A stretch of 64,000 nt of DNA from Elusimicrobiaceae bacterium (lineage in GTDB: Bacteria > Elusimicrobiota > Elusimicrobia > Elusimicrobiales > Elusimicrobiaceae). Location of the stretch: assembly GCA_045586725.1 (NCBI GenBank), contig JAZNAY010000001.1, positions 74,161 to 138,160 of the forward strand, given 5' to 3'. The position numbers and the translations under genes are program-made. Of the stretch, positions 665 through 54,828 are shown in pieces (the stretch's first letter is position 1; each line of letters opens with the position of its first letter). Below the pieces are notes generated by a model. The model did no database searches. It was given only the letters and a program-made list of their open reading frames with translations, and was not told where the DNA came from.

Positions 665-1219
665 TTAATTTACCAAATAGGAATTCGTACCGTTGTGCTC
701 ATCAACTAATGTTCCAATTGAGGCACATATTTTATTACTTTTGGGTCCTATTGCATCGCAGGTCATTTTGTTTCTGGCAGTTTCAACGGCATGGATAGGA
801 GATATTCCTATGTCAAATGAATCTTCGTCGAACTCAAAGTAATGCACACAACTGACGATAGCAACATATTTGCCTTGTGTATCTTGTGTAATTGCATAGC
901 ACTCATCCCAATAATCATTACTACAAACTAAACTATTTCCGCAAGGCTCATTACTATGAACATCTTTCCGCCAATCGGCGGGCCAATTAACGCCTAAATC
1001 TGCAGCGTTGGGGCATTCGTCGTCAGGGCAGAACTCATCATGTTCCAGTTCATATACGTGTAAGGCATCTTGCCAAGCACGTATTAAAGGTAAAACACTT
1101 GCTACTCTAGATTTTGCTACCGCAATTTGATATTGAGGCAAGGCAATACTTGCAAGTATACCTATAATTAAAACTACAACTAATAACTCAAGTAAAGTGA
1201 AACCTTTTTTATTTTTCAT
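665..1219 (-). CDS. prepilin-type N-terminal cleavage/methylation domain protein (type IV pilin / pseudopilin-like), Cys-rich C-terminal domain
   Basis: Starts MKNKKGFTLLELLVVVLIIGILASIALPQY, the class III signal with G|FTLLE and a hydrophobic helix. I moved the start to the ATG at 1219 because the ORF-track start at 1270 lies inside the promoter -35 box. Paralog of 24882..25409 (shared LGVxWPxDW and CSNDYW). Confidence 0.85.
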   Translation of the reverse strand: MKNKKGFTLLELLVVVLIIGILASIALPQYQIAVAKSRVASVLPLIRAWQDALHVYELEHDEFCPDDECPNAADLGVNWPADWRKDVHSNEPCGNSLVCSNDYWDECYAITQDTQGKYVAIVSCVHYFEFDEDSFDIGISPIHAVETARNKMTCDAIGPKSNKICASIGTLVDEHNGTNSYLVN

Positions 1220-1241
1220 AACATTCCTTTTATATACTAAA

Positions 1242-3495: not shown

Positions 3496-4914
3496 ATGAG
3501 GAAATTATTGATATTTACTTTTTGTTTACTGTTTACTGCCTGCGCAGGAAACAGAACTCTTGACGGAGAAACAACCAAAAATTGGGTTAAAATTGTTTCT
3601 TCTAAGATTGATAGATCTGGCAATATTCAAGATGTCTGTTATGTCTTTGACCTATCTTTTTACCCCGGAACAGTGTATGAAAGGTTAAAAAATAACCCTA
3701 ATACCTGCCTTGAGGAATGTTGTTGGTATTCGGAAAATAAAAGCGTAGATTTTTATTTTAACGATGGTTTTATTAGAGATTTGGAAGAACAAGGTGTCTC
3801 CCGCCGTTATTACCCGGATAATATGAAGATTAACTTAACTTATTCATCTTTTTTGAATCGTTTATCTGCAAAAGCAACTTCTGGTGAAGGTATTTCCAAA
3901 GATGGTGTCGTAAGGCTTGAATATGAAGATATCTATAACCCCGATCTAACAAATGAAGCAGGTACTAAGGCAGTAACTGAAGTTAATACGAGCAATTCCT
4001 CATCTTATAAAACATCAAGCATGAGTGGGCTTAACCGGAAGGAACTTTTAACTAAAGCAGAAAATGAGCAAAGGGAGTATTATACCAAAGCCGTAGCAGA
4101 ACGCTATGACAGCCCGGAAAAAGAATATGTGGAAGATGCATTGTCGTTTAAAGGGCAAGTTTCACCTTTCGTTAAAACAGATAAGGAAGCAAAATGGCTG
4201 TCCAAAAAACCCGTAACGGAAGAAGAAAGAATCAAGCAGCAAGAAATTATTGAGTATAGGAATAAAATAAAAGAAGAACGTGAACAGGCTAAACAGCAAG
4301 CCAAAGAAGAACGGGAAAAAGCCAAACAACAAGCCAAGGAAGAGAAAGAAAAACTTAAGCAGGAAAAAGAAAAACTTAAGCAAGAGAAAGAGCAACTTAA
4401 ACAGGAACAAGAAAAACTTAAACAATCAGCAGGACAACTTAATCAGCAAAAAGTTAATGTTGCGGCCAATGGAAAGGACAAAATGTATGATGTACAACGT
4501 ACTTTGGCACAAGAGGCAAAAATTGTTTATGTAGAACCTGTGATGCCTGAAGAAGTTGATTCTAAAACTTTGGCCAAAAAACTTGATTATGAAAGAAATG
4601 AGGCTGTTAAATTGCTCAAACGTTTTTACGGCGATGATATCGATACTTATCTCCGTGCGTTAGATAATGCTAAAAAGAAAAAGGGGCAGGTTTTGTTTAC
4701 CGATGATAAAGTTTGGCAAGCACAGAAAATAGCTACAACGGTTTATAAAGTTAACTGCAATGTTAAAGGTAAAATTGCTTTGCTCGGAACAAAACCCGAA
4801 ACAGCAACAACAGATTACCCTATTGCTTGCGGAACTTATATCGTTAATTTAGATGAAAAAACCGTCGCGGCAAAGGATAATATCGCTAAAGACATAGCCC
4901 AAAAAAGATATTGA
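3496..4914 (+). CDS. lipoprotein with a central K/E/Q-rich coiled-coil repeat region
   Basis: Signal plus lipobox MRKLLIFTFCLLFTACAG. Central repeats REQAKQQAKEE / REKAKQQAKEE and EKLKQEK x4. No recognisable catalytic motif. Confidence 0.6.
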   Translation: MRKLLIFTFCLLFTACAGNRTLDGETTKNWVKIVSSKIDRSGNIQDVCYVFDLSFYPGTVYERLKNNPNTCLEECCWYSENKSVDFYFNDGFIRDLEEQGVSRRYYPDNMKINLTYSSFLNRLSAKATSGEGISKDGVVRLEYEDIYNPDLTNEAGTKAVTEVNTSNSSSYKTSSMSGLNRKELLTKAENEQREYYTKAVAERYDSPEKEYVEDALSFKGQVSPFVKTDKEAKWLSKKPVTEEERIKQQEIIEYRNKIKEEREQAKQQAKEEREKAKQQAKEEKEKLKQEKEKLKQEKEQLKQEQEKLKQSAGQLNQQKVNVAANGKDKMYDVQRTLAQEAKIVYVEPVMPEEVDSKTLAKKLDYERNEAVKLLKRFYGDDIDTYLRALDNAKKKKGQVLFTDDKVWQAQKIATTVYKVNCNVKGKIALLGTKPETATTDYPIACGTYIVNLDEKTVAAKDNIAKDIAQKRY

Positions 4915-4987: not shown

Positions 4988-5512
4988 TTAATCTCCTTCT
5001 TCCTCATGCGGTGGGCCACAACTTTGTGTGCTTTCGCAATACCACCAACCTTGATTTCTTAACATGTCACAAATATACTCTCCGACTTGTGTATTATAGG
5101 TGTAACAATAATATAGAGACTGTGTTTTTCCATTTCCGTTTACATTATATAACTCGGTTAAACCGTAAGAGCCATTAGTTCTAATTGCTTCAACTGATGT
5201 GAAATTGTTATTGCTTATTCCATCTCCAAAAATTATATATTCGAAATTGTCAGTGGTATATTGATCGGGTAATTGATTAGGTAATTCTATATCAAGCATA
5301 TCAAAAGTAATATCCATATCTTCTGTATCATCGTTTTCATACATTAGTCTATACAAAGAATTTTCAATACTTTTAAGGGTTGTAAGTGCTTCGGATAATT
5401 TCGCTTTTTCAACCGCTCTTGTATATTGGGGTAAAGCAATACTTGCTAAAATACCGATAATTAAAACGACAACCAATAATTCTAGTAATGTGAAACCTTT
5501 TTTATTTTTCAT
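4988..5512 (-). CDS. prepilin-type N-terminal cleavage/methylation domain protein (pilin-like)
   Basis: Starts MKNKKGFTLLELLVVVLIIGILASIALPQY at the ATG at 5512. Upstream on the minus strand is TTGACT followed by a TATAGT/TAGTAT -10. Cys-rich acidic C-terminus. Confidence 0.85.
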   Translation of the reverse strand: MKNKKGFTLLELLVVVLIIGILASIALPQYTRAVEKAKLSEALTTLKSIENSLYRLMYENDDTEDMDITFDMLDIELPNQLPDQYTTDNFEYIIFGDGISNNNFTSVEAIRTNGSYGLTELYNVNGNGKTQSLYYCYTYNTQVGEYICDMLRNQGWWYCESTQSCGPPHEEEGD

Positions 5513-5632
5513 AATGTTCCTTGTTATCAAAGTGTACTCCTATATACTATAAAAAAAACAGTATTAAGTCAATTTAATATAGGGGGGGAATTTCGAATCC
5601 CTATGAATTCTCCCTACTGTCATTTTTTTATT

Positions 5633-6083: not shown

Positions 6084-7715
6084 ATGTTTAAAAAATGGAG
6101 TATATGTTTTGCACTTTTGTTATGTGTGTCAGCATTGTGTGCTAAAGATATTGTAATTTATCATACGTCTGATATACACGGGCAATATTTTGGGAAAGTG
6201 GACGATAACGGCAAATCGTACGGCGGTTTCGCACGCTTGGCCAATGTCCTTAAAAAGACTAAAAAGCCCTTTTTATTGTTAGATAGCGGTGACTTTAGTA
6301 GTGGTTCTTACGAAGCCAATATTTCCGATGGTAAATATTCAGTTGATTTAATGAACCGTATGGGTTATACCGCATTAACAATAGGTAACCATGATACTGA
6401 TTTTGGGGATGTCGGTCTTGGTAATATGCTTTCAGGTTTTAACGGTGACGTTTTAGCAATGAACGTCTCCCAATTCCAAATTCCGGAGAAAGGCCTTAAA
6501 GGGCATGCCGTATATAATGTCGGCGGTATAAAAGTAGGTGTTATAGGTGTTGCAATGGATGGTGCAGGCACAGAACGTATGCACGTTGTAAATGCCCCTA
6601 CAACCGAAGAATTTGAACGCCATATCACCGAACTTAAACAAGAAGGGGCAGACGTAATTGTTGTACTTGCACATGACTCTTTAATTTCAGATACCACAAT
6701 TTCAGTTGATAAACGCACTAACATTTTAGGGCCTCTTTCGGAAGCACCTTCCTTTGCTGATGTCGATTTGGTTTTGGGCGGTCATGCACATACACGCTCA
6801 CTTAACAAAAAAATTATTGACGGGGAAGATAAAGGCCCTTGGTTGGTGGAAGATTCTTCTTACCTTAACAGCATATCTTCAACCGTTATCAGCAAGAGCA
6901 AAAAAGGTGTTACAGTTCATGAACCTACCTTTATTACATTAGACGGTGATGAAGATAAAGACACCAAAGAGTATTTGGAAACTATTCGCGCTACACAATT
7001 AGATAATAAATTGTATGCTAAAGTTCCTAAATTGATTTCCAAATATCCTGCACTTGATCAAGAGGACCGCACTTCCGGCGTATCACGTATTTTTGCAGAC
7101 CAAATGTATGATCAAATTAAACCGCAAGAAGATAAATTAGATTTAGCGGCATATTCACTTAACTCCACAAGAAGTGATTATGAAGTGGGTGATATGACAG
7201 GCCGTTATTTTGCGGAAAAAACACCGTATAAAGAACACGCAGGTACATTTAATATCACAGGTGCCCATCTTTTGAAAGCAATGAATACTTCCGTAGGTTT
7301 CCGTGACGGCAGATGCTATTCAAGTTATGGGTATTCCAAAAATGTTCACATAACCATTTTGTGCGATAAACAGAAAAAGAAAGCCACAGTTTACAGCGTC
7401 ACAATTGACGGTAAAGATGTTAAACTTAAAAAGACTTACCGTATGGCTATGCTAACCCATTTGCCTCAAGGGTATTATGAAGGTAAACCTTTTAAAGTTG
7501 TTGATCCCAGCAACCCAGACAAGAATAAAATCATCAAGCATTATTATACGGTAACTAATGCCGATATGCTTTTTGGTGCTATTGAGCAGATGAAAAAGGA
7601 ACAAGGAAAAGAAATTCCTGTCTTTGAAGCCCCGACAGATGTTCAAGTCGAGGAAATTTACGAAATGCCTAATGCCGCAAAAAAGCCTTACATGTCATTA
7701 TTGTTTGTAGACTAA
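6084..7715 (+). CDS. secreted bifunctional metallophosphoesterase / 5'-nucleotidase (UshA-like)
   Basis: Signal peptide followed by the calcineurin-like motifs HTSDIHG, DSGDF, GNHD and GGHAH. The C-terminal half has the length and layout of a 5'-nucleotidase substrate-binding domain. Confidence 0.8.
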   Translation: MFKKWSICFALLLCVSALCAKDIVIYHTSDIHGQYFGKVDDNGKSYGGFARLANVLKKTKKPFLLLDSGDFSSGSYEANISDGKYSVDLMNRMGYTALTIGNHDTDFGDVGLGNMLSGFNGDVLAMNVSQFQIPEKGLKGHAVYNVGGIKVGVIGVAMDGAGTERMHVVNAPTTEEFERHITELKQEGADVIVVLAHDSLISDTTISVDKRTNILGPLSEAPSFADVDLVLGGHAHTRSLNKKIIDGEDKGPWLVEDSSYLNSISSTVISKSKKGVTVHEPTFITLDGDEDKDTKEYLETIRATQLDNKLYAKVPKLISKYPALDQEDRTSGVSRIFADQMYDQIKPQEDKLDLAAYSLNSTRSDYEVGDMTGRYFAEKTPYKEHAGTFNITGAHLLKAMNTSVGFRDGRCYSSYGYSKNVHITILCDKQKKKATVYSVTIDGKDVKLKKTYRMAMLTHLPQGYYEGKPFKVVDPSNPDKNKIIKHYYTVTNADMLFGAIEQMKKEQGKEIPVFEAPTDVQVEEIYEMPNAAKKPYMSLLFVD

Positions 7716-14854: not shown

Positions 14855-15892
14855 CTATTTAGTTAATTTTATACTGCCTGTTTTTGTTATTAAAAAGGTA
14901 TCTTCATACCTAATACCAAATTTGTTTTTAAAATAAAGCCCCGGCTCTATCGTAGTTAATGCATTTTCTTTTACTGTGTCTTCGCTCTTTTGGGATAATA
15001 TCGGGCGCTCATGTATTTCAAGCCCCAAATTGTGCCCGAGTGAATGTATAAAATATTTTGAAGCATCAAAATTATCTTCAAAATAATTGCGTGCCAAAGT
15101 ATCAAGTTCTTTTGCACCTTTGCCTGATTTAAGGGCTTTGTGTGCGACGGTGTAAGCTTCAAAAACCGCCTCAAAATAATGCTTAAATTCTTGCGAAGGT
15201 TTTTTGCCGAACCAAAAACTGCGCGTCATATCAGAGCAATAACCTTTATATCGGCAACCGAAATCTACTAAGACCGGCATTTCCTGTTTTAATTTCAAAT
15301 TTGAATTTGTATGGTGCGGGTTTGCGGTGTTTTTACCGAAGGCCATAATTGTATCAAAAGCAAGCCCTTGCCCACCGAGTTCTGCCATAATACCTTCAAG
15401 CAATTTTGCAGCCTGAATTTCTGTCATACCTGCTTTTAATTTTTTCTTAAAAATTTCAAAACTTTTTGAGGATATTTCGCAAGCCTTTTTTATAAGTTTT
15501 ATTTCGTCTTTTGTTTTAACTTCGCGGATAATAGAAGTTATTTTTGCCATTTCCTTAACGCCTGCTCTATATAAGGCTATTCCGTTTAAATAAGTGGATG
15601 CACAAGGGTCAAAAACAAAATTTTTGGCTTGTTTACCAAGGTTTTTTATAAGGTCATTAATATCGAGTGAATTTACAAAATTTAAAAACGGGCATTTAGT
15701 TTTTATGTCAATTAAGTACATTTCTTTTGTATAGCAAGTGGCTTTTTTAGGGGTTACTAGTAAAAAAGCATCGCCGTCGCTTACAAAAGTAAAAGAGGTT
15801 AAATAATTAATTGTCAAAATATCTGTAATTACAGCACCGCCGATTTTTTGCGCGGCTAGATATTTTTGAAATTTTTTAAGTGTTTCCGTCAT
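14855..15892 (-). CDS. M24 family Xaa-Pro aminopeptidase/dipeptidase
   Basis: Creatinase-like N-terminal domain plus pita-bread fold metal ligands (DFGCRYKGYCSDMTR, HSLGHNLGLEIHE, TIEPGLY, YEDT). Confidence 0.85.
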   Translation of the reverse strand: MTETLKKFQKYLAAQKIGGAVITDILTINYLTSFTFVSDGDAFLLVTPKKATCYTKEMYLIDIKTKCPFLNFVNSLDINDLIKNLGKQAKNFVFDPCASTYLNGIALYRAGVKEMAKITSIIREVKTKDEIKLIKKACEISSKSFEIFKKKLKAGMTEIQAAKLLEGIMAELGGQGLAFDTIMAFGKNTANPHHTNSNLKLKQEMPVLVDFGCRYKGYCSDMTRSFWFGKKPSQEFKHYFEAVFEAYTVAHKALKSGKGAKELDTLARNYFEDNFDASKYFIHSLGHNLGLEIHERPILSQKSEDTVKENALTTIEPGLYFKNKFGIRYEDTFLITKTGSIKLTK

Positions 15893-16938
15893 TTTATTTG
15901 TTTTGCCCCTGTTTTAGTCATATAAAAACAGTCTTCATGGCGTACGCCGAATTTGCCCGGCAAATAGATACCAGGTTCAATACTAAAGCAATAATTTAGG
16001 CCGATTTTATTTTTGTTTAATTCAGAAATATCTGCAAGTTCATGGTCTTGCATACCGATACCGTGGCCTGTTCGGTGGGTAAAATAGCCCCCATAACCTG
16101 CTTTTTTAATAACACCGCGGGAAAGCGCATCGATTTGTGCACCTGTCATGCCGTATTTTGCTTTTTTTACGGCGGTATCATGTGCTAAAATTGCAAGATC
16201 CAAAATCTTTTGATATTCCGGGTTTACTTTGTCACCAAACCAGAAACATCTGGTAATATCTGAGCAATAGCCTTTATAAACACAACCGAAATCAAGCAAA
16301 ACTGCGGTATTATTTTTTAATTTAGTATCGTCAGGCAAATGGTGTGGGTTTGCGCCGTTTGCGCCAAAGGACACTAAAGGAACAAAAGACATTGCCGTTG
16401 CGCCGCGCTCGCGCATAAACATTTCAATTTTAAGCGCGACTTGCTTTTCCGTCATACCTGCTTTGATTTCTTTTTTAATATAGAGAAAAGCACCGTAAGC
16501 AAGTTGTGCGGCCTCTTTCATTATTTTTATTTCTTGTTCAGTTTTTGTGGCACGAACTAAATTAATAAAATTGGAAACGGTCTTAAAACCGGCTTTTTTA
16601 TATTCTTTTGCTTGTGCAAAAAACTCTTTGTTTTCGTCAAAAGCGACTGCTTTTAATTTGAGTGTTTTTGCCTGTTTAATAATTTCAAAATGCTGGCCCT
16701 GTTCAAGAGGTATAAATTTGGCTTTTGGGAAATATTTTTTTGAATCGTTTTCATATAATGGGCGTGTAACAATTACAAGGCCTTTTTTGTGAATAAGAAG
16801 TGTAGCCTCGCCTTCACAGAAAATCTCTCCTAACAAGTAGTTCATGTCGTGAACATCTGTTAAGATAAGCCCATCTAATTTGTTTTTATTTAGGGCTGTA
16901 AGAATATTTTTAAATTTTGATTGATCAATACCGGGCAT
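15889..16938 (-). CDS. M24 family Xaa-Pro aminopeptidase/dipeptidase (tandem paralog)
   Basis: Same ligand pattern as its neighbour (DFGCVYKGYCSDITR, HRTGHGIGMQDHE, SIEPGIY, HEDC). Overlaps the downstream paralog by 4 nt. Confidence 0.85.
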   Translation of the reverse strand: MPGIDQSKFKNILTALNKNKLDGLILTDVHDMNYLLGEIFCEGEATLLIHKKGLVIVTRPLYENDSKKYFPKAKFIPLEQGQHFEIIKQAKTLKLKAVAFDENKEFFAQAKEYKKAGFKTVSNFINLVRATKTEQEIKIMKEAAQLAYGAFLYIKKEIKAGMTEKQVALKIEMFMRERGATAMSFVPLVSFGANGANPHHLPDDTKLKNNTAVLLDFGCVYKGYCSDITRCFWFGDKVNPEYQKILDLAILAHDTAVKKAKYGMTGAQIDALSRGVIKKAGYGGYFTHRTGHGIGMQDHELADISELNKNKIGLNYCFSIEPGIYLPGKFGVRHEDCFYMTKTGAKQIK

Positions 16939-17011
16939 AAGACCTCTCTACATTATACCAATTATAGAGAGGGTTTGTGTGATAGTTTTACATGTTAATG
17001 TTCCGTAATAG

Positions 17012-17186
17012 GAAAATCTACAGTTTTCATTTTTTGCTAGCGGCGTCTTTTGGGCTAATTTAAATTTTTCCTTTCCTAGAATACCGAAAATCGCTTCGCT
17101 CCTATACTTCTGGGTATTCGTCGTCAAGGAGAAAATTTAAATTATCTCCAAAATACTTGCTAGGTGTGTGTACTTACGGTGCGGCT
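17012..17186 (+). repeat. structured intergenic element, copy C (diverged)
   Basis: Collinear with 54207..54378. Shares the core TCGCTTCGCTCC, GTCGTC, AAAATACTTG and ACGGTGCGGCT. Its arms differ from copy A but stay complementary (TAATTTAAATTTT/AAAATTTAAATTA; GAATACC/GGTATTC). Confidence 0.75.
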
Positions 17187-17249
17187 TTTTTAATATAAAA
17201 CCCCGGTTAAATAAACCGAGGTTTTATAAACTTTCCTTGATTTCCATTT

Positions 17250-17678
17250 TTATTTTTTACTGGGTAATAAGCAGAAAATTAATAATGGCATACCACTCAA
17301 AACCTGTGCAGCATCTATAAAAAGTTTTACTGTTTTAACTTGTGGCACATTTAATGATAGTAATCTCATAACAACTAGTAAAGAGAAAATACAGGATACG
17401 ATTGATGGAATTAATAATAATCCCCAATAGGGATTAAACCCGGTATCTCTTATTCTGCGGACAGTTATAGCCCAATGCGGTATATTATACGCCAACATGA
17501 TTGTTGCCCATATAATACTAAACATTGGATATAACATTATAAACGGTGCGGAAAATAAAGCAATTCCTATCCCAAATATCACAACCCACAAAACAAATAA
17601 CCAGTATTGTTTGCGAGTTGCTTTGCCGCTAAAATCAGCATAATGGTATCTTAGTACATCAATAAAATATTCTTTCAT
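17250..17678 (-). CDS. DUF805 domain inner-membrane protein
   Basis: DUF805 signature: FSGKATRKQYW near the N-terminus, TM helices, and RRIRDTGFNPYW. Confidence 0.8.
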   Translation of the reverse strand: MKEYFIDVLRYHYADFSGKATRKQYWLFVLWVVIFGIGIALFSAPFIMLYPMFSIIWATIMLAYNIPHWAITVRRIRDTGFNPYWGLLLIPSIVSCIFSLLVVMRLLSLNVPQVKTVKLFIDAAQVLSGMPLLIFCLLPSKK

Positions 17679-20545: not shown

Positions 20546-22572
20546 TATGCTGTCCTCTCTTGATTTATAGGTAAGGTTATTGAAAATGTCGTCCCTTTAT
20601 TTTTTTCCGAAGTAACTTCAATATTTCCTTTATGTGCATCAACAATCTGTTTTACTATGGTTAAACCTAGGCCGTAACCGTTAACATTTCTGTCTGCCTG
20701 GTGATATTTTTTAAATATTTTCGGTAATTCTTCTTTCGGTATACCTATACCTGTATCGCGGACAGTAATTTTATAATTTTTTCCATCTTGTTTTATATCG
20801 ATAAAAACGCCGCCTTTAGAAGTAAATTTAATTGCATTTGATATTAAATTTGAAAATACTCTTTCAAGTAAATTCTTATCCGCGTCGATAGTGAATTTAT
20901 CTTCTGAATTTGTTTTTAGTTCTAAGTCTTTTTGTTTTGCTAGAGGGGTTAAGGTGTAAACAATATCATTAACCATTTTCGCCAAATTAAAAGTAGTTTT
21001 ATTTAAAACCAAAAGGCCTCGTTCGAGTTTTGAAATATCTAAAATATTTTCTACTAAATTTACAAGCATTTTTGAAGAATTAGAAATTGCTTTTAGCATT
21101 TGATTCTGTTCTTCTTTGCTAAGGTTGCCTTCTTCTAAAAGCATAATGTAACCTTGTATACCAAGTATCGGGGCGCGGAGGTCATGTGCAACAGCATTAA
21201 AGACATCATTTTTCATTTCACTGATTTCGTGTTCTGATGTAATATCCCTAAACAAAATGATTGCAACCGCTTCCTGGTTTTGTGGGCGGAAAGTTTCAAT
21301 TACAACTTCAAAATAGGCCGGTTTACCGTCTTTAATATAATTAAAAACGGTTCCACTCGGTACTTTTAATAATTCTTTTAAAGATGGGTCTTCCAGATCT
21401 TCCAAACGGATTGTTTTTTCAAGATTTTTTGCAAAGGCTTCGCTTGTTAAAATATGTTTTGCCGTTTTATTCGCAAAAAGTTCTTTGCCGTCCAATGTGC
21501 ACATTACAATTCCGTCCCTCATTAGGCGGGCAAGCAAATTAACCTTATTCTGTTCTTCAAGTAATTTATCAAGTTGGACGGCTTGATATTCTTTGAGTTT
21601 TACTACCATGGAATTAAAAGTTTTTATCAGCGGGGTAAATTCTTCCAAATACTTATTTTCATCAATGTGTACGGAAAAATTATTTTTTGTTATTTCATTT
21701 GCTGCATCAATAAGTTTATCCATCGGTTCTGCCAAATCTTCCGCAAAATACATAGATGCGAAATAAGATAGAGTTGTCGTCGCTAATACGAAGAAAATAA
21801 TGAGCCAAGAAATGAAATTTATTGTGTAAAATGCTTCCTTTTGGTTTTGAAGTAAAAACAGATAACCTTCACCTATCGGGTTTTTTATATAGGCACCGGC
21901 TAATGTTGAACCTGCCTGTGTTTTAAAATTAGAAATTGTTCCCTGTAAATCTAAATTTTGCTCACTTAAATTTATAATAGGTAGTGTGTTATTGCTTAAT
22001 ACGTGATAACCGTTTTTATCTAGAAAATATAAACCGCCGCTGTTACCTATTTTATGCAATTCCGTTTGGGTAATAAGATTTGTAATGTCTGCAACCATTA
22101 GTAAGATATTTCCATTATCTTGTTTTAAGGTAATAGTTGTGTAAGGGGGGAAAATGTCTTCCGGATAATTTATTTTTACTTGCCTAGATGGAATATCTTT
22201 TAATTCAGTATTTTGGGATAAATCCATAGTAGGTAAATCTTCAAAATTTATATTTTTTGCCCTTGCAAGTTCTTTACCTCCCGGGGAAAATAAAGAAATA
22301 AATAAAATATTTGTATCTTTTATTACCTGATTATTTAAGGTATTCTTTTGTTGTTCTAAAGTTTGATTAACCAGCAAAGCATTTATATTTTGTGCTAACG
22401 TGAGAGCATAATTTTCCAAAGAAAAGGCAAAAATTTCGACTGTATTTAAATAGTTTTGTAAAAGTTCCTTTTTTGCATGTTTCTGATATTGAAATAAAAA
22501 TACGGCAGTTATTAAAAGCGGAGCAATAACAACAAACAGAAACATTCTAAATAATTTCGGAAATATTTTCAT
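20545..22572 (-). CDS. sensor histidine kinase (periplasmic sensor, HAMP, PAS-like, HisKA, HATPase)
   Basis: Two TM segments flank a periplasmic domain of about 230 aa. H-box AHDLRAPI, N-box SNAIKFT, G-boxes DTGIGI and GYGLGL. No response regulator is adjacent. Confidence 0.85.
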   Translation of the reverse strand: MKIFPKLFRMFLFVVIAPLLITAVFLFQYQKHAKKELLQNYLNTVEIFAFSLENYALTLAQNINALLVNQTLEQQKNTLNNQVIKDTNILFISLFSPGGKELARAKNINFEDLPTMDLSQNTELKDIPSRQVKINYPEDIFPPYTTITLKQDNGNILLMVADITNLITQTELHKIGNSGGLYFLDKNGYHVLSNNTLPIINLSEQNLDLQGTISNFKTQAGSTLAGAYIKNPIGEGYLFLLQNQKEAFYTINFISWLIIFFVLATTTLSYFASMYFAEDLAEPMDKLIDAANEITKNNFSVHIDENKYLEEFTPLIKTFNSMVVKLKEYQAVQLDKLLEEQNKVNLLARLMRDGIVMCTLDGKELFANKTAKHILTSEAFAKNLEKTIRLEDLEDPSLKELLKVPSGTVFNYIKDGKPAYFEVVIETFRPQNQEAVAIILFRDITSEHEISEMKNDVFNAVAHDLRAPILGIQGYIMLLEEGNLSKEEQNQMLKAISNSSKMLVNLVENILDISKLERGLLVLNKTTFNLAKMVNDIVYTLTPLAKQKDLELKTNSEDKFTIDADKNLLERVFSNLISNAIKFTSKGGVFIDIKQDGKNYKITVRDTGIGIPKEELPKIFKKYHQADRNVNGYGLGLTIVKQIVDAHKGNIEVTSEKNKGTTFSITLPINQERTA

Positions 22573-22590
22573 TTGCTTTACCTGATTTGT

Positions 22591-23274
22591 TTAAATATCT
22601 TTTATTCCTGCCTTTTCAAAACCTGCTTTTCTTAGACGGCATGCATCACATTTTCCGCAGGGTTTTTGACCGCCGCGGTAACAACTCCAGGTTGAAGCAA
22701 AAGGTACACCTAATTTGGCACCGAGTTTCGCAATTTGTGCTTTGCTTAATTTAAGTAATGGTGTTAAAACTGCTATGCGTGGGCCACCGACTGCAGAACG
22801 TGTCCCTTCAAAAATTGCACGTTCTAACGGGATATAAAATCTAGGGCGACAGTCCGGATAGCCGGAGTAGTCAACTGAATTTGCTCCCAAAACTATTGCA
22901 CTGGCGCCGATACTATCTGCCAAAGATGCTGCAATAGATGCAAAAATTAAGTTTCTTGCCGGTACATATGTTGAAGGTAAACGTCCGATGGCTTTGATTT
23001 TCGACAAAGGTTCATTTGGAATCGGGGTTTTATTCCCTACTAAAGATGTTACTTCTTTAAGCCAAGGTAAATTAAGGCTTATTTCAATTAATTTAACCTT
23101 TAAATCTTTACATATTTTACGGCAGCAATCTCTCTCTTTTTTATGTTTTTGGCCGTAGGCTATATTTAGACAAACGCATTCATAACCTTGATGCAAAGCC
23201 CAATATAAACAAGTGGTGGAGTCAAGCCCTCCTGAGTGTAAAATTATTGCTTTTTTTATTTTTTTTGCAGTCAT
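22591..23274 (-). CDS. queC: 7-cyano-7-deazaguanine synthase
   Basis: PP-loop SGGLDST and a C-terminal zinc Cys cluster (CGKCDACRLR). Confidence 0.9.
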   Translation of the reverse strand: MTAKKIKKAIILHSGGLDSTTCLYWALHQGYECVCLNIAYGQKHKKERDCCRKICKDLKVKLIEISLNLPWLKEVTSLVGNKTPIPNEPLSKIKAIGRLPSTYVPARNLIFASIAASLADSIGASAIVLGANSVDYSGYPDCRPRFYIPLERAIFEGTRSAVGGPRIAVLTPLLKLSKAQIAKLGAKLGVPFASTWSCYRGGQKPCGKCDACRLRKAGFEKAGIKDI

Positions 23275-23714
23275 TATTTCTCCTCGCTATTTAGAGCAGC
23301 GGTGGTTTGTGCGAATTTAGTAATTATTTCAATTTCTTCTTCGCTGAGGTCGTCTAAATATTTAACCAAATTCGTTGCCAAAGTTATTGGGCGCCCATTA
23401 GTATTATCTTCATCAAAATATTGCTTTATTAACAAGGCATTTGCACCGTGGGCTGCCGCAAAATTTTGCAATTTTAAGATGCTGGCTTCAATAATTTTTG
23501 GATCACTCGGTAAGTTTTTTATACGCTGAATGCCGATATTGGACCAAGGTCGTGTAATTTGGTTCACATTCGTAAATACAGGTAAATCTTTGCCTTCAGT
23601 TACTTTAACAGGTAAATTTTGTGGGCCTATTGGAATATAATCTGATTTGCCTTGCATGGAAGCACAGGCCGTTAAAGAAAATAGAACTAAAGTTAAGAAT
23701 AAATATTTTTTCAT
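23274..23714 (-). CDS. lipoprotein of unknown function
   Basis: Signal and lipobox MKKYLFLTLVLFSLTACAS. 146 aa. Confidence 0.55.
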   Translation of the reverse strand: MKKYLFLTLVLFSLTACASMQGKSDYIPIGPQNLPVKVTEGKDLPVFTNVNQITRPWSNIGIQRIKNLPSDPKIIEASILKLQNFAAAHGANALLIKQYFDEDNTNGRPITLATNLVKYLDDLSEEEIEIITKFAQTTAALNSEEK

Positions 23715-23722
23715 ATAATCTC

Positions 23723-24748
23723 CTAATTTTTTGCAGCAAGTTGCCCGCAGGCGGCTGCGATATCTGCACCTAAACTTTTGCGGACAGTTACTTTAATATT
23801 CATTTTTTCTAAGGCCTCAGCAAAAGCATAAACAGCCGCGGCAGGCGGTGTTTTGGCTTTTGAAGTAGCCTCGTTACAAGCAATTAAATTGACGTGCAAA
23901 AGATAATTATCTCTAAAAGAATTTATCCATTTGCCGAGTTTTCTAATGTGTGCTGGTAAATTATTTACTCCGTCTATAACAGTATATTCTAAAAAGACCT
24001 CGCGCGCATTTAATTTCAAATAATTTTCAAGTTCTTTTTTTAAGATATCAAGGTTATATTTGCGGTTTATAGGCATTAAAGCGGAACGTTCTTTATTATC
24101 GGCATTATGTAAAGAAAGAGCCAAATTTACTTGTGGTAATTCTTTTGCTAAATTTTCAAATTTATCGGCAATACCGGATGTGGAAATTGATATATGGCGT
24201 TTTCCTATATTTAAATAGTCTTTGTTTGATAGAATTCCAACCGCCTGTTTGACTTCGCAGTAATTTAAAAGAGGTTCGCCCATCCCCATAAAAACAATAT
24301 TTGAAACATGTTCACCTTTAAATTCTTTTTGTAAAAATTGGTGCCAAAATAAAACTTGGTCTGAAATTTCTTCCGCAGTTAAATTGCGTTTAAAACCTAA
24401 TTTACCGGTTGCACAAAAGGCACATCCCAAAGGGCAGCCTGCTTGGGAAGAAACACAAACACTCCAAAATTTGCCGGGTTTCATTAAAACGGTTTCTATT
24501 TTAGGACCGTCGTGTAATTTCAGTAAAGCTTTATAAACTCTATCTAGTTTTGAACTTTGTAATTTTACAAGGTCAAAAGATAGAATTTTGAAATTTTTAT
24601 TTAAGGCTTCCTGTAAATTTTTAGGTAAAGTTTTTATATCGTTCCAAGAACTTTTGCCGTCAACAAAAACCCCTTGCCTGATTTGATTTAGGCGGTAAGC
24701 CGGGAAATTTTGTTCTTTTACAAAGTTTTTTATTTTGATAAAGTCCAT
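23723..24748 (-). CDS. rlmN: 23S rRNA (adenine2503-C2)-methyltransferase, radical SAM
   Basis: Radical SAM motif CPLGCAFCATG and C-terminal ACGQL. I prefer the ATG at 24748; the ORF-track start at 24766 is a TTG. Confidence 0.9.
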   Translation of the reverse strand: MDFIKIKNFVKEQNFPAYRLNQIRQGVFVDGKSSWNDIKTLPKNLQEALNKNFKILSFDLVKLQSSKLDRVYKALLKLHDGPKIETVLMKPGKFWSVCVSSQAGCPLGCAFCATGKLGFKRNLTAEEISDQVLFWHQFLQKEFKGEHVSNIVFMGMGEPLLNYCEVKQAVGILSNKDYLNIGKRHISISTSGIADKFENLAKELPQVNLALSLHNADNKERSALMPINRKYNLDILKKELENYLKLNAREVFLEYTVIDGVNNLPAHIRKLGKWINSFRDNYLLHVNLIACNEATSKAKTPPAAAVYAFAEALEKMNIKVTVRKSLGADIAAACGQLAAKN

Positions 24749-24811
24749 ATATAAACATTTTATCAAATTTACGGGGATAAGGTTTCTTTTATTTATAATT
24801 TTAACTTTTGA

Positions 24812-24839
24812 TTGACATTTTTTTTTTTTTTCTTAAAAT
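24812..24839 (+). promoter_or_regulatory. promoter of pilin-like gene 24882..25409 with a T14 homopolymer as spacer
   Basis: TTGACA (24812-24817), then T14 (24818-24831) plus CT, then TAAAAT (24834-24839). The spacer is 16 nt. This is the longest homopolymer I saw in the window. Confidence 0.55.
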
Positions 24840-24881
24840 ACATTTATACTCAAATCTTATAAAATGAGCAAGGGAGAAAAT

Positions 24882-25409
24882 ATGAAAAATAAAAAAGGTT
24901 TTACTTTACTTGAATTATTGGTAGTAGTTTTAATTATAGGTATATTGGCAAGTATTGCTTTGCCGCAATATCGTATGGCAGTAACAAAGGCAAGAGTTGC
25001 AAGTATATTACCACTAATGCGAAGATGGTATGACGCTATGGCAGAATATAGATTACAACATGGTGATTACAATATTAATGATGCCTCTGCTTTAGGTGTA
25101 TCTTGGCCAACTGATTGGAAAATAAGTGGTTCTAATAATCTTTGTGATGATCATGTAGAATGTTCAAATGATTATTGGTATTGCTTCGCTAATGAAGAGC
25201 TCTCGGGGCAGGTTTATTGTGATCACACTACAAATGATGGCGCTTTTGCAATAGTTTTATTTCAACCAGATGAACCTCTTTATAAAAAATGTCAAGGTAA
25301 AATAGCTTGTTATGCTGATGGTGAAGATGCCAATAAAGTTTGCAAAGCATTAGGTGGTACAATTGTCCGAGGTACAGGTATTACTTGGGAATATGTCTAT
25401 TTGTTATAA
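24882..25409 (+). CDS. prepilin-type N-terminal cleavage/methylation domain protein (pilin-like)
   Basis: MKNKKGFTLLELLVVVLIIGILASIALPQY, with RBS AGGGAG upstream of the ATG at 24882. The C-terminal domain is paralogous to 665..1219. Confidence 0.85.
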   Translation: MKNKKGFTLLELLVVVLIIGILASIALPQYRMAVTKARVASILPLMRRWYDAMAEYRLQHGDYNINDASALGVSWPTDWKISGSNNLCDDHVECSNDYWYCFANEELSGQVYCDHTTNDGAFAIVLFQPDEPLYKKCQGKIACYADGEDANKVCKALGGTIVRGTGITWEYVYLL

Positions 25410-25430
25410 ATAAGATCGCGATACAAGGAT

Positions 25431-25485
25431 AAAAATTTACCAAAAAGACGTCGCTGCCACAAAACTTAAATTGCGAAAATTCCTA
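25431..25485 (-). repeat. left-arm fragment of the structured intergenic element (copy D)
   Basis: The reverse complement reads GAATTTTCGCAATTTAAGTTTTGTGGCAGCGACGTCTTTTTGGTAAATTTTT. This matches the first ~55 nt of copy A (GAAATTTGCAGT...GTCTTTTTGGTAAATTTTG), after which similarity stops. Confidence 0.55.
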
Positions 25486-25524
25486 CTTTTTGCCTATTTG
25501 TCCCAAAAAATATAAAATATATAC

Positions 25525-26376
25525 ATGAGACAAATAAACCTAAACTCAAATCAAGGTTCTAAATGGTTGCCGACGGTATATATTATAATTTCCTTGGCTT
25601 TAATGATACTGCCGCTTCAGCAAACTGTCAATTCCGTTAGGGCAGTACTTGCTTATTTGTTCATACCCCAACTGCGTTTAGCCCACCAAACAAAAGAATA
25701 TTTTAAAGATATCAACGAAGGAACACAAACTTTATTAAATGTCGCTTTGGAAAATTTTGAACTTAAAGAAAAGTTAAAAAAGATTCAAATTGAAGCACTG
25801 GAATTACCTACTTTAAAAGAAGAAAATGACCGCTTACGTAAAGCATTGAATTTAAAAGAATCAATAAAAATCAACGGTATTTGGGCAAAAGTGGCTTATA
25901 AAGAACCGAATAAAATGTCCAGCCTTATTATTGATAAAGGGGAAGAAGATGGTATTTCCTTGCGTTCCCCGGTTATCGCTTTAACATTAGATGGTACACC
26001 GGCTTTGCTAGGTATGATTGTTGAGATTTCAAAAAACACATCAAAAGTTTTACTTTTGCCTGATGAAGATTTTAATGCTTATGTTTACCTTGGAAATACA
26101 AAAACCGAAGGACTTTTAAAAGGCCAAGGTTTAAGAGCTGTGATTTTAAAATATCTGCCTTTGGAGGAAGATTTAAAAATTGATACACCTGTTTTTACAT
26201 CTTCTTCAAGTGCATTGTTCCCGGAGGGATTGTTAGTCGGTTATCTTTTAAATGACGGTATGGAAGGTTTGACAGGTGCTTCAACTTATAAAGAGCCTAC
26301 ATTAAAGCCCGCTTTGAATTTTGATACGGTCAAAGAGGTTTTTGTTTTGTCTTATAAGGGGGCAAATAATGCTTAG
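25525..26376 (+). CDS. mreC: rod shape-determining protein MreC
   Basis: N-terminal TM segment, coiled coil (ENFELKEKLKKIQIEALELPTLKEENDRLRK), then a beta-barrel domain. Sits in mreCD-mrdA-rodA gene order. Confidence 0.85.
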   Translation: MRQINLNSNQGSKWLPTVYIIISLALMILPLQQTVNSVRAVLAYLFIPQLRLAHQTKEYFKDINEGTQTLLNVALENFELKEKLKKIQIEALELPTLKEENDRLRKALNLKESIKINGIWAKVAYKEPNKMSSLIIDKGEEDGISLRSPVIALTLDGTPALLGMIVEISKNTSKVLLLPDEDFNAYVYLGNTKTEGLLKGQGLRAVILKYLPLEEDLKIDTPVFTSSSSALFPEGLLVGYLLNDGMEGLTGASTYKEPTLKPALNFDTVKEVFVLSYKGANNA

Positions 26377-36631: not shown

Positions 36632-36661
36632 ATAAGTATAGGGATAAAGGAGGGGATTTTT

Positions 36662-37243
36662 ATGTATAAAAAAGGTTTTACTCTTATAGAATTGCTTATG
36701 GTGGTGTTAATTATTGGCATTTTATCAGCAATTGCTTTACCCCAATATAAGAGGGCAATTGAAAAGTCAAGATATGCAGAAATAGAAGAAATGATACACA
36801 ACATACTTAGTGCGGAGCAAAGATATTATCTTGACCATGGCACTTTCACTGACACTTTTAACAAGTTAGATACCGATTTTTCAATCAGCAATGGCGTAAT
36901 ATCCGGAAATCTGTTGCGTACTGATAATATGGAAATTTCAATAGACGCAAAATATATTGAGGCAAGTAGAACTAAAGGAACGCCTAGGGTTGATCTTACT
37001 AGTGTGTATACCATATATGGGGATATGGAAACGGGGAGAATTTTTTGTCAAGATGATATTGAGAAAGATGATATAACTTGTAAATGGTTTGGGCTTGATG
37101 AAATGAAGATGTGTTATGATGACGTCGTTGTAGGTGTAAAAGATCATTGCCCGGACGAGATTTCATCGCAAGAGTCATGCGAAAAGAACGGTTGTTATTG
37201 GGATACTAGTACGAAACCGGAAAGTTGTACATGTAAACCGTAA
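36662..37243 (+). CDS. prepilin-type N-terminal cleavage/methylation domain protein (pilin-like)
   Basis: MYKKGFTLIELLMVVLIIGILSAIALPQY. The C-terminus is Cys-rich (CPDEISSQESCEKNGCYWDTSTKPESCTCKP). Confidence 0.85.
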   Translation: MYKKGFTLIELLMVVLIIGILSAIALPQYKRAIEKSRYAEIEEMIHNILSAEQRYYLDHGTFTDTFNKLDTDFSISNGVISGNLLRTDNMEISIDAKYIEASRTKGTPRVDLTSVYTIYGDMETGRIFCQDDIEKDDITCKWFGLDEMKMCYDDVVVGVKDHCPDEISSQESCEKNGCYWDTSTKPESCTCKP

Positions 37244-40930: not shown

Positions 40931-41047
40931 ATAAGTATTTTACTTAACAATAACTCCCCTACGAAAGTGGGGGAGTTTCTTGTTTCTAGTACGGAAATTG
41001 TTAAAGGTTTAATTTTTTTGTAAAATGTGTGTATGCGCACAGTAATT

Positions 41048-41599
41048 ATGAAAAATAAGAACGGTTTTATGTTAATCGAAATATTAGTGGTAGTTTTGAT
41101 TATAGGCATACTTGCAAGCATTGCTTTGCCGAGATATCAAATGGCAGTTGATAAAACAAAATATACAAATCTAATGCCGATAACAAAAACCATACTAGAA
41201 TCTCAATTACGGGCTTTATTGGAAACAGAAAACCCTTCTTTCGAAGATTTAGATATCGGTATACCTGGAAATTGTACGCTGGTTGATGGTCATCCGTGGG
41301 CCATTACTTGTGATGATGGTAGATGGGGTTGCTTAATGAGGAGAAGTGGTGGTACTCCTGTTAGATATTGGACTCGTTGTACTGATGTAGGACTTAATGC
41401 TTCTTATTTTTATACCATAAACATGGGGTCATCGGATGTTTCTGCGCGATGTTATGCCCATACTACGGAAGATGATGATAGGCCCAATCGTTTATGTAAG
41501 GCACTTACAAATAAAGAAAATCGTGAAGCAAGGGAAGGTATTGCCATGTTTTGGCAACCTAACGGCCCTTGGGTTCAATCAAACGGATATTCTTTTTAG
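41048..41599 (+). CDS. prepilin-type N-terminal cleavage/methylation domain protein (pilin-like)
   Basis: MKNKNGFMLIEILVVVLIIGILASIALPRY from the ATG at 41048. A C-terminal LCKAL motif is shared with 24882..25409 (VCKAL). Confidence 0.85.
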   Translation: MKNKNGFMLIEILVVVLIIGILASIALPRYQMAVDKTKYTNLMPITKTILESQLRALLETENPSFEDLDIGIPGNCTLVDGHPWAITCDDGRWGCLMRRSGGTPVRYWTRCTDVGLNASYFYTINMGSSDVSARCYAHTTEDDDRPNRLCKALTNKENREAREGIAMFWQPNGPWVQSNGYSF

Positions 41600-54167: not shown

Positions 54168-54206
54168 TTGTCTTTACTATATTTTAGCAAATTATTTGTG
54201 CGTTTT

Positions 54207-54378: not shown

Positions 54379-54418
54379 CCATATAATGACTTATAAACGC
54401 TAAAAATGGTAAAATATA

Positions 54419-54757: not shown

Positions 54758-54786
54758 CCACTAAAAAATAACGTGGGTGGTTTTTA
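54753..54786 (+). terminator. terminator at the rnpB 3' end
   Basis: ACCACCCAC TAAAAAATAAC GTGGGTGGT TTTT. Confidence 0.7.
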
Positions 54787-54828
54787 AATTTTGTATAATT
54801 ACCTTATCTTTACTATCAAGGAGATTTT

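Follow-up and report, generated by a model that had tools for sequence, protein, structure and literature searches.

The sequence at positions 17012-17190 (plus strand) of the window, the whole 64,000-nucleotide stretch of an Elusimicrobiaceae contig analyzed here, is a copy of a dispersed intergenic repeat built around a long imperfect hairpin, and the base pairing of this hairpin is kept by purifying selection. The repeat probably represents a new family of the ERIC, bcr1, BOX and REP type, whose hairpin would act in cis within read-through transcripts. The family is apparently undescribed so far and, as far as the scans show, restricted to gut and rumen Elusimicrobiaceae. A pattern scan of genomes returned 77 loci, 71 of them in 12 Elusimicrobiaceae MAG species, while the 6 loci from other phyla were without profile support. 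Altogether, 82 full copies and some 35 partial ones were found, and a single MAG carries 22 or more of the full copies. Mosaic copies and tandem partial modules were seen, including tandem modules of about 65-72 nt (3′ arm plus 3′ flank) following a full unit and orphan tandem 3′ halves. Closely spaced copies stand in inverted orientation, and copies are otherwise dispersed. The repeat is non-coding, without a conserved ORF; a small candidate ORF was dropped, as its ATG is found in only a minority of copies.

The repeat unit consists of a 5′ flank, an imperfect hairpin of about 130 nt with four helices, and a 3′ flank, totaling about 175 bp. The inverted repeat is internal, with no inverted repetition between the terminal 25-30 nt of the two sides, and the arms, which are not small palindromes in their own right, form a single hairpin. 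In the copy at 17012-17190 (copy C; nhmmer match 17013-17187, 169 bits; all parts given on the plus strand), the 5′ flank module at 17011-17035, delimited by column mapping and folding, forms a small and weak hairpin (GAAAAT..TTTTC) with a T-run after it; locus L042 has a canonical terminator-like hairpin in its place. Further upstream, an outer 5′ module, TTTTACATGTTAATGTTCCGTAA (16986-17008), is part of a still longer hairpin in related “type II” copies. Helix 1 pairs CTAGC (17037-17041) with GCTAG (17159-17163), and helix 2, the A/T-rich outer arm carrying a -10-like CTAATT/TAATTT, pairs 17046-17069 with 17131-17155. These are followed by helix 3 (CCTT, 17070-17073, with AAGG, 17126-17129) and helix 4 (GAATACC, 17079-17085, with GGTATTC, 17113-17119). 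The 5′ internal loop TCCTA (17074-17078) is invariant in 77/80 aligned copies, and the 3′ internal loop GTCGTC (17120-17125) in 69/80, with CGTC present in nearly all. The apical loop (17086-17112) contains the core TCGCTTCGCTCC at 17091-17102, which is nearly invariant across the 80 copies, and 78/80 have AAAATACTTG at the base of the 3′ arm (17150-17159). The 3′ flank module of copy C (17164-17191, ..ACGGTGCGGCTTTTTT) forms a weak hairpin; in most copies this flank has a terminal GGTTTGGCTTTATTT with a -35-like TTGGCT/TTGACT. Compared with shuffled sequences, copy C folds stably as plus-strand RNA (-44.7 kcal/mol, z -3.2), minus-strand RNA (-39.2 kcal/mol, z -3.5) and DNA (-22.7 kcal/mol, z -3.6).

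Two other full copies are present, giving three per 64 kb. Copy A (54205-54383, plus strand) lies between tRNA-Val (minus strand) and the RNase P RNA gene (plus strand), and copy B occupies 59167-59345 on the minus strand. Truncated copy D (25426-25476, minus strand; nhmmer E = 5e-5, model positions 8-58) retains only the 5′ flank and the beginning of the 5′ arm, adjoining the 3′ end of a pilin-like gene upstream of mreC. A probable 5′-flank remnant upstream of the rpsO promoter (55790-55825, minus strand) was recognized by eye and by synteny, as four relatives (L032, L061, L071, L081) have a full element at this site. An exact-protein look-up succeeded with the S15 protein, and with the neighboring aminopeptidase it returned no contig.

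The initial annotation had proposed a selected hairpin from paired differences between the arms of copies A and C, and these joint changes are indeed present in the outer arm (TAAATTTTGATTTTT / AAAAATTAAAATTT in copy A, CTAATTTAAATTTTT / AAAATTTAAATTA in copy C) and in the inner arm (AAGTACC / TGTACTT and GAATACC / GGTATTC, respectively). Besides the additional truncated copy D, two details needed correction. The change from CTAC/GTAG in copy A to CAGC/GCAG in copy B is real, although it lies in the third of the four helices rather than the innermost, and copy B has an A.A mismatch there. The supposedly fixed GTCGTC reads CGCGTC in copy B, CGTC being the part fixed across copies A, B and C. 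For the three window copies RNAalifold predicted 45 pairs, among which 10 had changed on both sides, with a similar result for the opposite strand. Alignment A4 extends this to 80 full copies, drawn from the window and 11 Elusimicrobiaceae genomes, on which a 37-pair structure was scored. Pairing was found in 94.9% of cells compared with 86.4% in shuffles, and 19 pairs (268 cells) showed changes on both sides. The covariation score was 0.269 compared with 0.118 in shuffles, a value reached by 0/500 of them, and every slid-partner control scored at or below 0.072. In helix 1, pair 49/194 is CG in 43 copies and UA in 33, and pair 50/193 is GC in 56 and AU in 19; helix 2 has 21 pairs (97.9% paired) with double changes in 8 of them, and double changes were found in 4/4 pairs of helix 3 and 4/7 of helix 4. 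It had been foreseen that a wider alignment might leave the arm substitutions uncorrelated or reduce them to two sequence subfamilies. They remain correlated over the 80 copies, and two subfamilies are inadequate because helices 1-4 carry 3, 9, 9 and 4 perfectly complementary haplotypes, respectively, reassorted into 63 combinations.

The imperfections of the hairpin are conserved as well. A C.T mismatch and a further pyrimidine-pyrimidine mismatch are each kept in 78/80 copies, and a bulged T in 74/80. Paired changes, many haplotypes and near-invariant loops, mismatches and bulge together show that the hairpin is under selection, as initially proposed. Complementary arms could also arise with no structural selection, by quasi-palindrome template switching or gene conversion between arms or copies; the correction of quasi-palindromes is well established as a mutational mechanism. 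Copies of this family clearly undergo conversion or replacement among themselves, as seen in an arm-swap chimera (L036) and in subtype switching at orthologous loci. However, correction would erase asymmetries, whereas 69-78/80 copies across all subtypes retain the two mismatches, the bulged T and two dissimilar internal loops, and the stems vary while the loops do not. Chimeras also look rare, with one clear case noticed among 80 copies; its 96% identity to L007 shows that this half-element replacement is recent. In addition, subtypes are 96-98% identical across species, compared with 83-89% for the aligned, mostly coding flanks of the same species. The conserved imperfections thus argue against plain palindrome homogenization, an explanation that we consider very unlikely.

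The family is old and divided into many complementary-arm subtypes common to several species, which are swapped or replaced at given loci. The nearest match to copy C (L005, 98.5% identical) sits at a different locus of a different genome, whereas the positional orthologs of copy C, L050 and L051, reach only 87-88% identity. Loci L029, L059 and L024 have three subtypes with one common 5′ flank. Mean identity is 0.804 within genomes and 0.81 between genomes, and the nearest relative lies within the same genome for only 17/80 copies. There have been no recent bursts, because within- and between-genome identities are equal. The initial annotation had set selection on structure against a recently spread selfish repeat; the absence of recent spread stands, but the opposition itself fails, since this is a high-copy interspersed repeat with mosaic tandem modules.

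Base-pair chemistry is neutral as to strand. Mismatches in the 80 copies comprise 51 G.T (29 of them at one helix-end pair), 76 A.C and 74 others. No G-U excess was found on either strand, nor did wobble pairs depend on the likely transcribed strand of neighboring genes in this set. The tolerance of G-U far above A-C expected of structured RNA was thus not seen, and the earlier view that G-U pairs leave the strand undecided was borne out. A purely RNA-level constraint would predict a preference for G-U, and the mismatches show none for either strand. An RNA gene is not upheld: there is no Rfam match, no wobble excess, and only a weak 3′ flank hairpin (~-6 kcal/mol, z ~0). A DNA cruciform appears unlikely, because about 45 central bases, with the 27-nt loop and the 7-bp inner helix that closes it, would need to open. 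The family is a cautionary case: strong covariation around an invariant loop should not, by itself, be taken as proof of an RNA gene. With Rfam release 15 at gathering thresholds, the whole window matched only RNase P RNA and four tRNAs, without a match to the repeat, and a permissive scan of 16900-17300 gave only sub-threshold matches far under each gathering score. BLAST searches against phages and plasmids gave no match to the repeat, and the literature on the loop sequence and on Elusimicrobia repeats yielded nothing relevant. The lone pattern match in a viral contig was an unrelated terminator.

Only the orientation of the copies points to a strand, namely the minus strand. Repeat copies are intergenic without exception and occur in all four gene-orientation contexts. 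Between co-directional genes they are antisense in a ratio of 26:4 (p = 6e-5, with orthologous loci counted more than once), and stricter gene calls gave 13:0 and 8:0. Orientation is independent of GC skew, used over 8 kb as a proxy for replication direction (39 negative and 38 positive; 15 and 17 at strongly skewed loci). Most copies have their 3′ end at the stop codon of one gene and their 5′ end just upstream of the promoter of the next. Copies directly adjoin stop codons in both orientations, starting 0-30 nt past them without room for a terminator, and small TPR genes have their stop codon within the 3′ end of the element. The start of copies so close to stop codons, together with the orientation bias, is indirect evidence that the element may be transcribed as part of neighboring mRNAs. 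The constraint may be tied to transcription, because orientation follows neighboring genes and not GC skew; the element would then most likely work as a cis-acting hairpin carried on read-through transcripts. This hairpin would be the minus strand, as an mRNA 3′-end or intercistronic structure that stabilizes, processes or insulates; comparable roles have been proposed for REP, ERIC, BOX and bcr1. The fixed loops and mismatches could be what a protein recognizes when it acts on the folded single strand, and donated -35 boxes and promoted rearrangements may be side effects on neighbors. About 10 copies lie between convergent genes, without a promoter nearby, and about 20 between divergent genes (a third of classifiable copies), which leaves no positional role common to every copy. 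The element is not a canonical terminator, because neither strand has a U-tract past the hairpin, and no intrinsic terminator was scored for copies A, B or C. The idea of an orientation-specific terminator separating the element from the preceding gene was discarded, since stop codons are abutted in both orientations.

The proximity to promoters raises the possibility of an element working as double-stranded DNA in promoter architecture, either as a protein-binding palindrome or cruciform or as a UP-like or -35-donating module. In 39/80 copies an extended -10 promoter is located 8-37 nt beyond the 5′ end, so that about half have their 5′ end immediately upstream of a neighbor's promoter. The 5′ edge of copy A and the 3′ end of copy B (TTGGCT; 16-nt spacer, TG-TATAAT, promoter of the downstream gene) were scored as -35 boxes, the arms are rich in A-tracts, and strand-neutral mismatches are what a cruciform would predict. 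However, a protein binding double-stranded DNA requires fixed rather than co-varying half-sites, the copies in convergent spacers have no promoter to serve, and extrusion would face the cost described above. The promoters lie outside the unit, because their offsets vary from 8 to 37 nt, and the idea that the unit includes a promoter at a fixed flanking position was discarded accordingly. This explanation has very little probability. An invertible promoter was ruled out by the central region, which has the same orientation in 80/80 copies, and sigma-54 and Bacteroidetes-type promoter motifs were unmatched on inspection.

The only conserved promoter-like site of the repeat lies within the co-varying 5′ arm. 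It could drive plus-strand small RNA genes, with TTGCYR, a 15-16 nt spacing and TGGTAAATT as promoter, C/U-rich loops as anti-Shine-Dalgarno seeds and the 3′ flank as terminator. Native promoters of the host belong to the TGnTAAAAT / TGnTATAAT type. The 5′ arm conserves TGGTAAATT, whereas the mirror position on the opposite arm reads TGAGGAAATT, a conserved asymmetry, and the loops contain CUCC and UCCUA. Nevertheless, such a transcript would begin after the 5′ arm, yet this arm co-varies with the 3′ arm; no terminator was scored in the weak 3′ flank, and at least 20 copies per genome together with orphan tandem 3′ halves do not suit independent genes. Together with the lack of wobble excess and of an Rfam family, this makes small RNA genes extremely unlikely.

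A further explanation is a non-autonomous single-stranded DNA mobile element, whose hairpin and CGTC loop would be the substrate of a trans-acting HUH (Y1) transposase of RAYT or IS200/IS605 type, or of another structure-specific recombinase, with compensatory changes keeping the single-stranded hairpin. No target-site duplication was found among direct repeats of 3, 4, 5, 6 and 8 nt at all boundary offsets (best 13/80 against a background of 7; a 2-nt TA duplication could hide in the A/T-rich DNA), as such an element would predict. Copies also differ in presence even where neighboring genes are 93-95% identical: copy A, with positional orthologs at L048 and L079, is absent in L084 and L080, and similar differences separate L037 from L060, and L052 and L013 from L067. 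The strand-neutral mismatches would fit, as would the unpaired CGTC beside a stem, which recalls CGTC-tagged REPs (PMC3733652) in resemblance only. However, the replication-orientation bias of IS200/IS605-type elements was not found, the bias following neighboring genes instead. No transposase-like family recurred in the 1125 ORFs within about 4 kb of the 77 loci plus the window, and no RAYT-like gene family was seen in loci of about 8 kb around copies. None of the five presence/absence cases showed a clean empty site, the boundaries being fuzzy and the “empty” sites holding unrelated filler or 5′-flank remnants. Recent bursts are absent, and the unit is 4-6 times the length of a REP. We therefore regard a mobile single-stranded element as rather unlikely. 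Classical MITE traits are partly present, the repeat being short, non-coding, multi-copy (82 full copies) and 94.9% paired in its arms, but target-site duplications are missing and the inverted repeat is internal rather than terminal.

As an imperfect palindrome of 100-200 bp that is intergenic, multi-copy and maintained by compensatory changes, the repeat agrees with ERIC, bcr1 and BOX-like elements, in keeping with our preferred reading of a new intergenic repeat family. The 127-bp ERIC (IRU) of enterobacteria are likewise imperfect palindromes of this size class with conserved loci in related species, and are thought to act when transcribed; they are unrelated in sequence and host, and the copy density is higher here. 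Integron attC sites, imperfect palindromes 60-140 bp long whose extrahelical bases are conserved, follow the stops of small variable genes and are recognized as folded single strands. The TPR-gene stop codons inside the 3′ end and the variable gene slots beside some copies resemble this arrangement. However, inspection of the consensus on either strand revealed no R″/R′ pair (RYYYAAC / GTTRRRY) and thus no core sites, no same-orientation arrays exist, and variable genes also occur in slots without the element, so the attC assignment was rejected. The bcr1 repeat of the Bacillus cereus group (~155 bp) is an interspersed intergenic repeat of similar size whose long hairpin or cruciform-like fold is kept by compensatory changes, and its distribution varies between related strains (PMC3184786). 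It differs in being flanked by 5-bp direct repeats, in its unrelated sequence and in its phylum, and the Elusimicrobiaceae repeat has subtypes common to several species without recent bursts. Pneumococcal BOX (boxA, boxB n times, boxC) shares the modular mosaic with tandem repeats of one module, complementary end modules in a stable stem, an intergenic position and possible effects on neighboring genes. BOX is believed to be mobilized by an IS, as cited in PMC3184786. In contrast, no IS partner was seen for the Elusimicrobiaceae repeat, there is no sequence similarity, and its hairpin is longer, with invariant internal loops. REPINs share long vertical persistence with this repeat but consist of two inverted small palindromes, which this unit does not. 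REP, BIME and REPIN sequences are, similarly, high-copy extragenic palindromes forming mosaics without target duplication, with an unpaired conserved tag by the stem (PMC3733652). In REPs this tag is GTAG or CGTC at one end of the stem; here an unpaired GTCGTC, which includes CGTC, lies beside helix 3 in 69/80 copies, although within the internal loop of a far larger fold. REPs are also short (20-40 bp), G+C-rich and located mainly between unidirectional and convergent genes (PMC3733652), whereas this unit is 175 bp, A/T-rich and frequent between divergent genes.

The repeat adds a well-defined family for a poorly studied phylum, with unusually rich natural covariation in its nine arm haplotypes, conserved mismatches and invariant loops. 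Should a protein partner or a role at the transcript level come to light, the rules of recognition could be tested directly on the conserved loops and the natural stem variants. More speculatively, the repeat might be, instead of a passive or selfish palindrome, the nucleic-acid half of an undescribed structure-specific system, in which a dedicated protein would read TCCTA, GTCGTC, TCGCTTCGCTCC, the pyrimidine-pyrimidine mismatches and the bulged T, with arm subtypes as specificity variants or “addresses”. Such a system could be a novel chromosomal hairpin element serving cassette exchange or recombination at hypervariable slots, or a cis-regulatory RNA module employed at dozens of sites in each genome; we consider it unlikely. 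The family marks intergenic hot spots, where pilin-like, ankyrin and small TPR genes are gained or lost and synteny breaks between related species, and it can therefore inform studies of genome plasticity and of breaks in the assemblies of gut and rumen Elusimicrobiaceae. Some copies border on variable gene slots, and the same slots hold variable genes without the element at L079, L080 and L082.

Three full copies of the unit of about 175 nt, each consisting of a 5' flank, a four-helix hairpin and a 3' flank, are present in the window. Copy C (17012-17190, +) lies within a spacer of 311 nt. On one side this spacer is bounded by the start of an Xaa-Pro aminopeptidase gene (15889-16938, -), on the other by the end of a DUF805 gene (17250-17678, -), whose bidirectional terminator (~17199-17229) stands between the copy and the gene. 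Copy A (54205-54383, +) is placed between tRNA-Val (-), whose promoter -35 overlaps the 5' edge of the copy, and the RNase P RNA gene (+), while copy B (59167-59345, -) is found upstream of a 228-aa ORF, with its terminal TTGGCT scored as the promoter -35 of the ORF that follows. The profile search also detected a truncated copy (25426-25476, -), reduced to the 5' flank and the beginning of the 5' arm. The 5' part of the repeat profile also matches very weakly at 51084-51140 (-; E = 0.33), which may be a decayed remnant; two loci of relatives, L032 and L071, carry extra sequence including a partial repeat at this spot. The aminopeptidase gene beside copy C belongs to an adjacent pair of paralogs (14855-15892 and 15889-16938, both -), which overlap by 4 nt and share ~70-85% identity over short stretches.

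The hairpin of this element is under selection. Copy C folds with -44.7 kcal/mol as + strand RNA (z -3.2), -39.2 kcal/mol as - strand RNA (z -3.5) and -22.7 kcal/mol as DNA (z -3.6), and the consensus of the three window copies has 45 pairs, 10 of them changed on both sides. Covariation was tested on 37 named pairs of the four helices, numbered from foot to apex, in an 80-copy alignment (A4), where 94.9% of the cells were paired, against 86.4% in shuffles, and double-sided changes affected 19 pairs (268 cells). The covariation score of 0.269 (0.118 in shuffles) was reached by none of 500 shuffles, controls in which the pairing partner was shifted by 1-3 columns gave at most 0.072, and RNAalifold independently recovered 33 of the 37 pairs, 16 with compensatory changes. 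The variable pairs of helices 1 to 4 form 3, 9, 9 and 4 perfectly complementary haplotypes, in 63 helix combinations among the 80 copies, so the paired arm changes reported in the initial annotation are still correlated in the larger sample and do not reduce to two sequence subfamilies. The main arm types of helix 2 are TTTTGATTTTT/AAAATCAAAA, TTTTAGTTTTT/AAAACTAAAA, TTTAAATTTTT/AAAATTTAAA, TTTTAATTTTT/AAAATTAAAA and TTTCAATTTTT/AAAATTGAAA. The arm sequences quoted in that annotation were accurate; GTCGTC, listed there as fixed, reads CGCGTC in copy B, and CTAC/GTAG, described as innermost, belongs to the third of the four helices.

Loops and imperfections are near-invariant across all arm subtypes. 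These include the apical core (G/A)TCGCTTCGCT (~74 of 80 copies), the internal loops TCCTA on the 5' side (77) and GTCGTC on the 3' side (69), the 3' arm foot AAAATACTTG (78), a C.T mismatch (78), a pyrimidine-pyrimidine mismatch (78; T.C in 52, C.T in 17) and a bulged T (74). That the structure is under no selection is very improbable, as imperfections conserved in 69-78 of the 80 copies argue against compensation by palindrome correction alone; they point to a defined shape that would be recognised by some partner.

A scan of one genome per species for TCGCTTCGCTCC followed, after a gap of 36-56 nt, by AAAATACTTG yielded 77 loci, of which 71 belong to 12 MAG species labelled Elusimicrobiaceae, Elusimicrobia or Elusimicrobium, mostly from rumen or gut where the source is stated. 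The six matches in other phyla had no profile support and were discarded as chance. In these loci and the window, nhmmer identified 82 full and ~35 partial copies, with at least 22 full copies in one MAG, a lower bound since only pattern-bearing loci were fetched. The window shares 80-95% identity with these MAGs and metagenome scaffolds over syntenic stretches, and the abundance of type IV pilin-like paralogs in it is in keeping with this clade. The element was not found in phage and plasmid collections.

No recent bursts are seen, and subtypes are common to several species. Copies are on average as similar within genomes (mean identity 0.804) as between genomes (0.81), and only 17 of 80 copies have their nearest relative in the same genome, which bears out the view that this is not a recently spread repeat. 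The nearest match of copy C (98.5% identity) is L005, another locus in another MAG, whereas its positional orthologs, the copies at the corresponding place ahead of the aminopeptidase gene in L050 and L051, share 87-88%. Three MAGs carry three subtypes on one shared flank (L029, L059, L024), and in L036 the 5' half has been replaced relative to its 96%-identical neighbour L007, giving the only clear case of a mismatched chimera noticed in the set of 80. Copy A is common to L048 and L079 and missing from L080 and L084; across the neighbouring genes, L084 shares 94-95% identity with the window. The absence sites have unclean boundaries and unrelated filler in place of the element; other presence/absence cases show the same pattern or retain 5' flank remnants. 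No target-site duplication was detectable, and no transposase family recurs within the examined loci.

These palindromic repeats, interspersed between genes, very probably form a new family of the same broad type as bcr1, ERIC, BOX and REP/BIME. The family resembles bcr1, for which maintenance of the hairpin by compensatory changes has already been described (PMC3184786); mosaic arrangements and unpaired tags are known from REPs (PMC3733652). The 3' arm and 3' flank (~65-72 nt) also occur alone, in tandem after full copies, and a "type II" variant combines a different complementary arm pair (TTTTTTATTTTT/AAAAATAAAAAA) with additional outer modules that pair into a ~190-nt hairpin (DNA fold -36.7 kcal/mol, z -5.0); the first of these outer modules precedes copy C (16986-17008). 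In four copies (L021, L052:6300-6524, L013, L010) the 5' arm is interrupted at one common position (A4 columns 81-97) by an insert of 17 nt, CTACGGGTAGAATTACC. This sequence occurs elsewhere in reverse orientation as well (8 matches in 7 loci; also L016 ~7480-7500) and may be a tiny independent repeat. Many copies are followed by further modules, among them G+C-rich hairpins.

Every copy is intergenic, and all four gene-orientation contexts are represented. Between co-directional genes, 26 copies are antisense and 4 sense (p = 6e-5, with orthologous loci counted repeatedly and events not independent); stricter gene calls gave antisense:sense ratios of 13:0 and 8:0. Orientation is unrelated to local GC skew (39 vs 38), which makes a single-stranded-DNA mobile element unlikely and, with the gene-linked bias, indicates that the constraint seems tied to transcription rather than replication. 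A stop codon often abuts the 3' end of the element, and in the 133-aa TPR protein family the TAA stop lies within its terminal ...GGCTTTATTT; in 12 or so cases the + orientation abuts a stop codon too. Given the orientation bias and the abutting stop codons, the element would most likely work as a cis-acting hairpin in - strand read-through transcripts. A transcript-level mechanism is a tentative proposal, and the neutral wobble spectrum weakens it: among the pair cells (37 pairs x 80 copies), 2758 are Watson-Crick, 51 G.T (29 at one helix-end pair), 76 A.C and 74 other mismatches, roughly the transitions and transversions expected without wobble tolerance on either strand. Splitting copies by the strand that the neighbouring gene would transcribe left this picture unchanged. 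A new palindromic repeat family combined with a transcript-level mechanism is, taken together, a reasonably probable interpretation.

The 5' arm conserves an extended -10-like TGGTAAATT, mirrored by TGAGGAAATT in the 3' arm, and a TGnTAnnnT promoter serving the next gene is typically found at a variable offset of 8-37 nt from the 5' end (39 of 80 copies); an element of double-stranded DNA or promoter architecture is nonetheless a quite improbable reading. An sRNA gene is more doubtful still, because transcription from TGGTAAATT would leave out the 5' arm, the covariation partner of the 3' arm. Rfam has no matching family, terminator scoring of copies A, B and C placed none in the element, and the 3' flank hairpin is weak (~-6 kcal/mol, z ~0). 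The initial annotation thus stands as to selected structure and non-recent spread; the element is still a high-copy repeat, and the search for RNA-gene evidence found none.

Two gene families accompany the repeat. TPR proteins of ~103-180 aa (most ~133-154 aa), with several paralogs per genome, have their TAA stop inside or at its 3' terminus (L003, L005, L028, L050, L051, L061), and the small TPR gene and the repeat may duplicate together. In relatives, the largest gene family around the repeats is that of the pilin-like ORFs (34 ORFs, 22 loci), which often converge with their 3' ends on the 3' end of the repeat. The conserved 5' end of the type IV pilin-like genes, with the N-terminal methylation motif (GFTLLELLVVV...), forms a second repeat family in the window (1035-1220, 5396-5522, 24875-25066, 36652-36794 and 41041-41183). 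The G+C-rich hairpin module (..TAATTCCCCGCCCCTTTG...CAAAGGGGCGGGG..) that often follows the hairpin repeat constitutes a further repeat family in these genomes, with 29 matches in 22 loci (L016 7440-7900; L021 1-330, reverse strand; L032 2790-2930; 19 further loci), and is all but missing from the window.

Window 54786-55817 is a hypervariable gene slot. It holds an ankyrin-repeat gene (54829-55800), which the closest relative, L084, lacks, its RNase P RNA gene directly adjoining the rpsO promoter; other relatives have a hairpin repeat, pilin and sulfatase genes, or an inverted RNase P gene there. In L080 (ERZ28633654 scaffold_1530), apparently two inverted RNase P RNA genes (1542-1944, +; 3577-3959, -) flank three small genes, one pilin-like. 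The pnp-birA slot (58365-59360) contains the 228-aa ORF, which has no Pfam match, and copy B; L079, L080 and L082 have a pilin-like gene in this slot, and in L081 it measures just 34 nt and has a different terminator. Tandem repeats of 21 and 33 nt at 4270-4444, rich in AAG, GAA and CAA codons, are probably a Lys/Glu/Gln-rich repeat region within a gene. At ~22000-26000, GC skew turns from negative (before ~22 kb) to positive (after ~24 kb) and gene orientation switches too, as would fit a replication origin or some other point of skew reversal.
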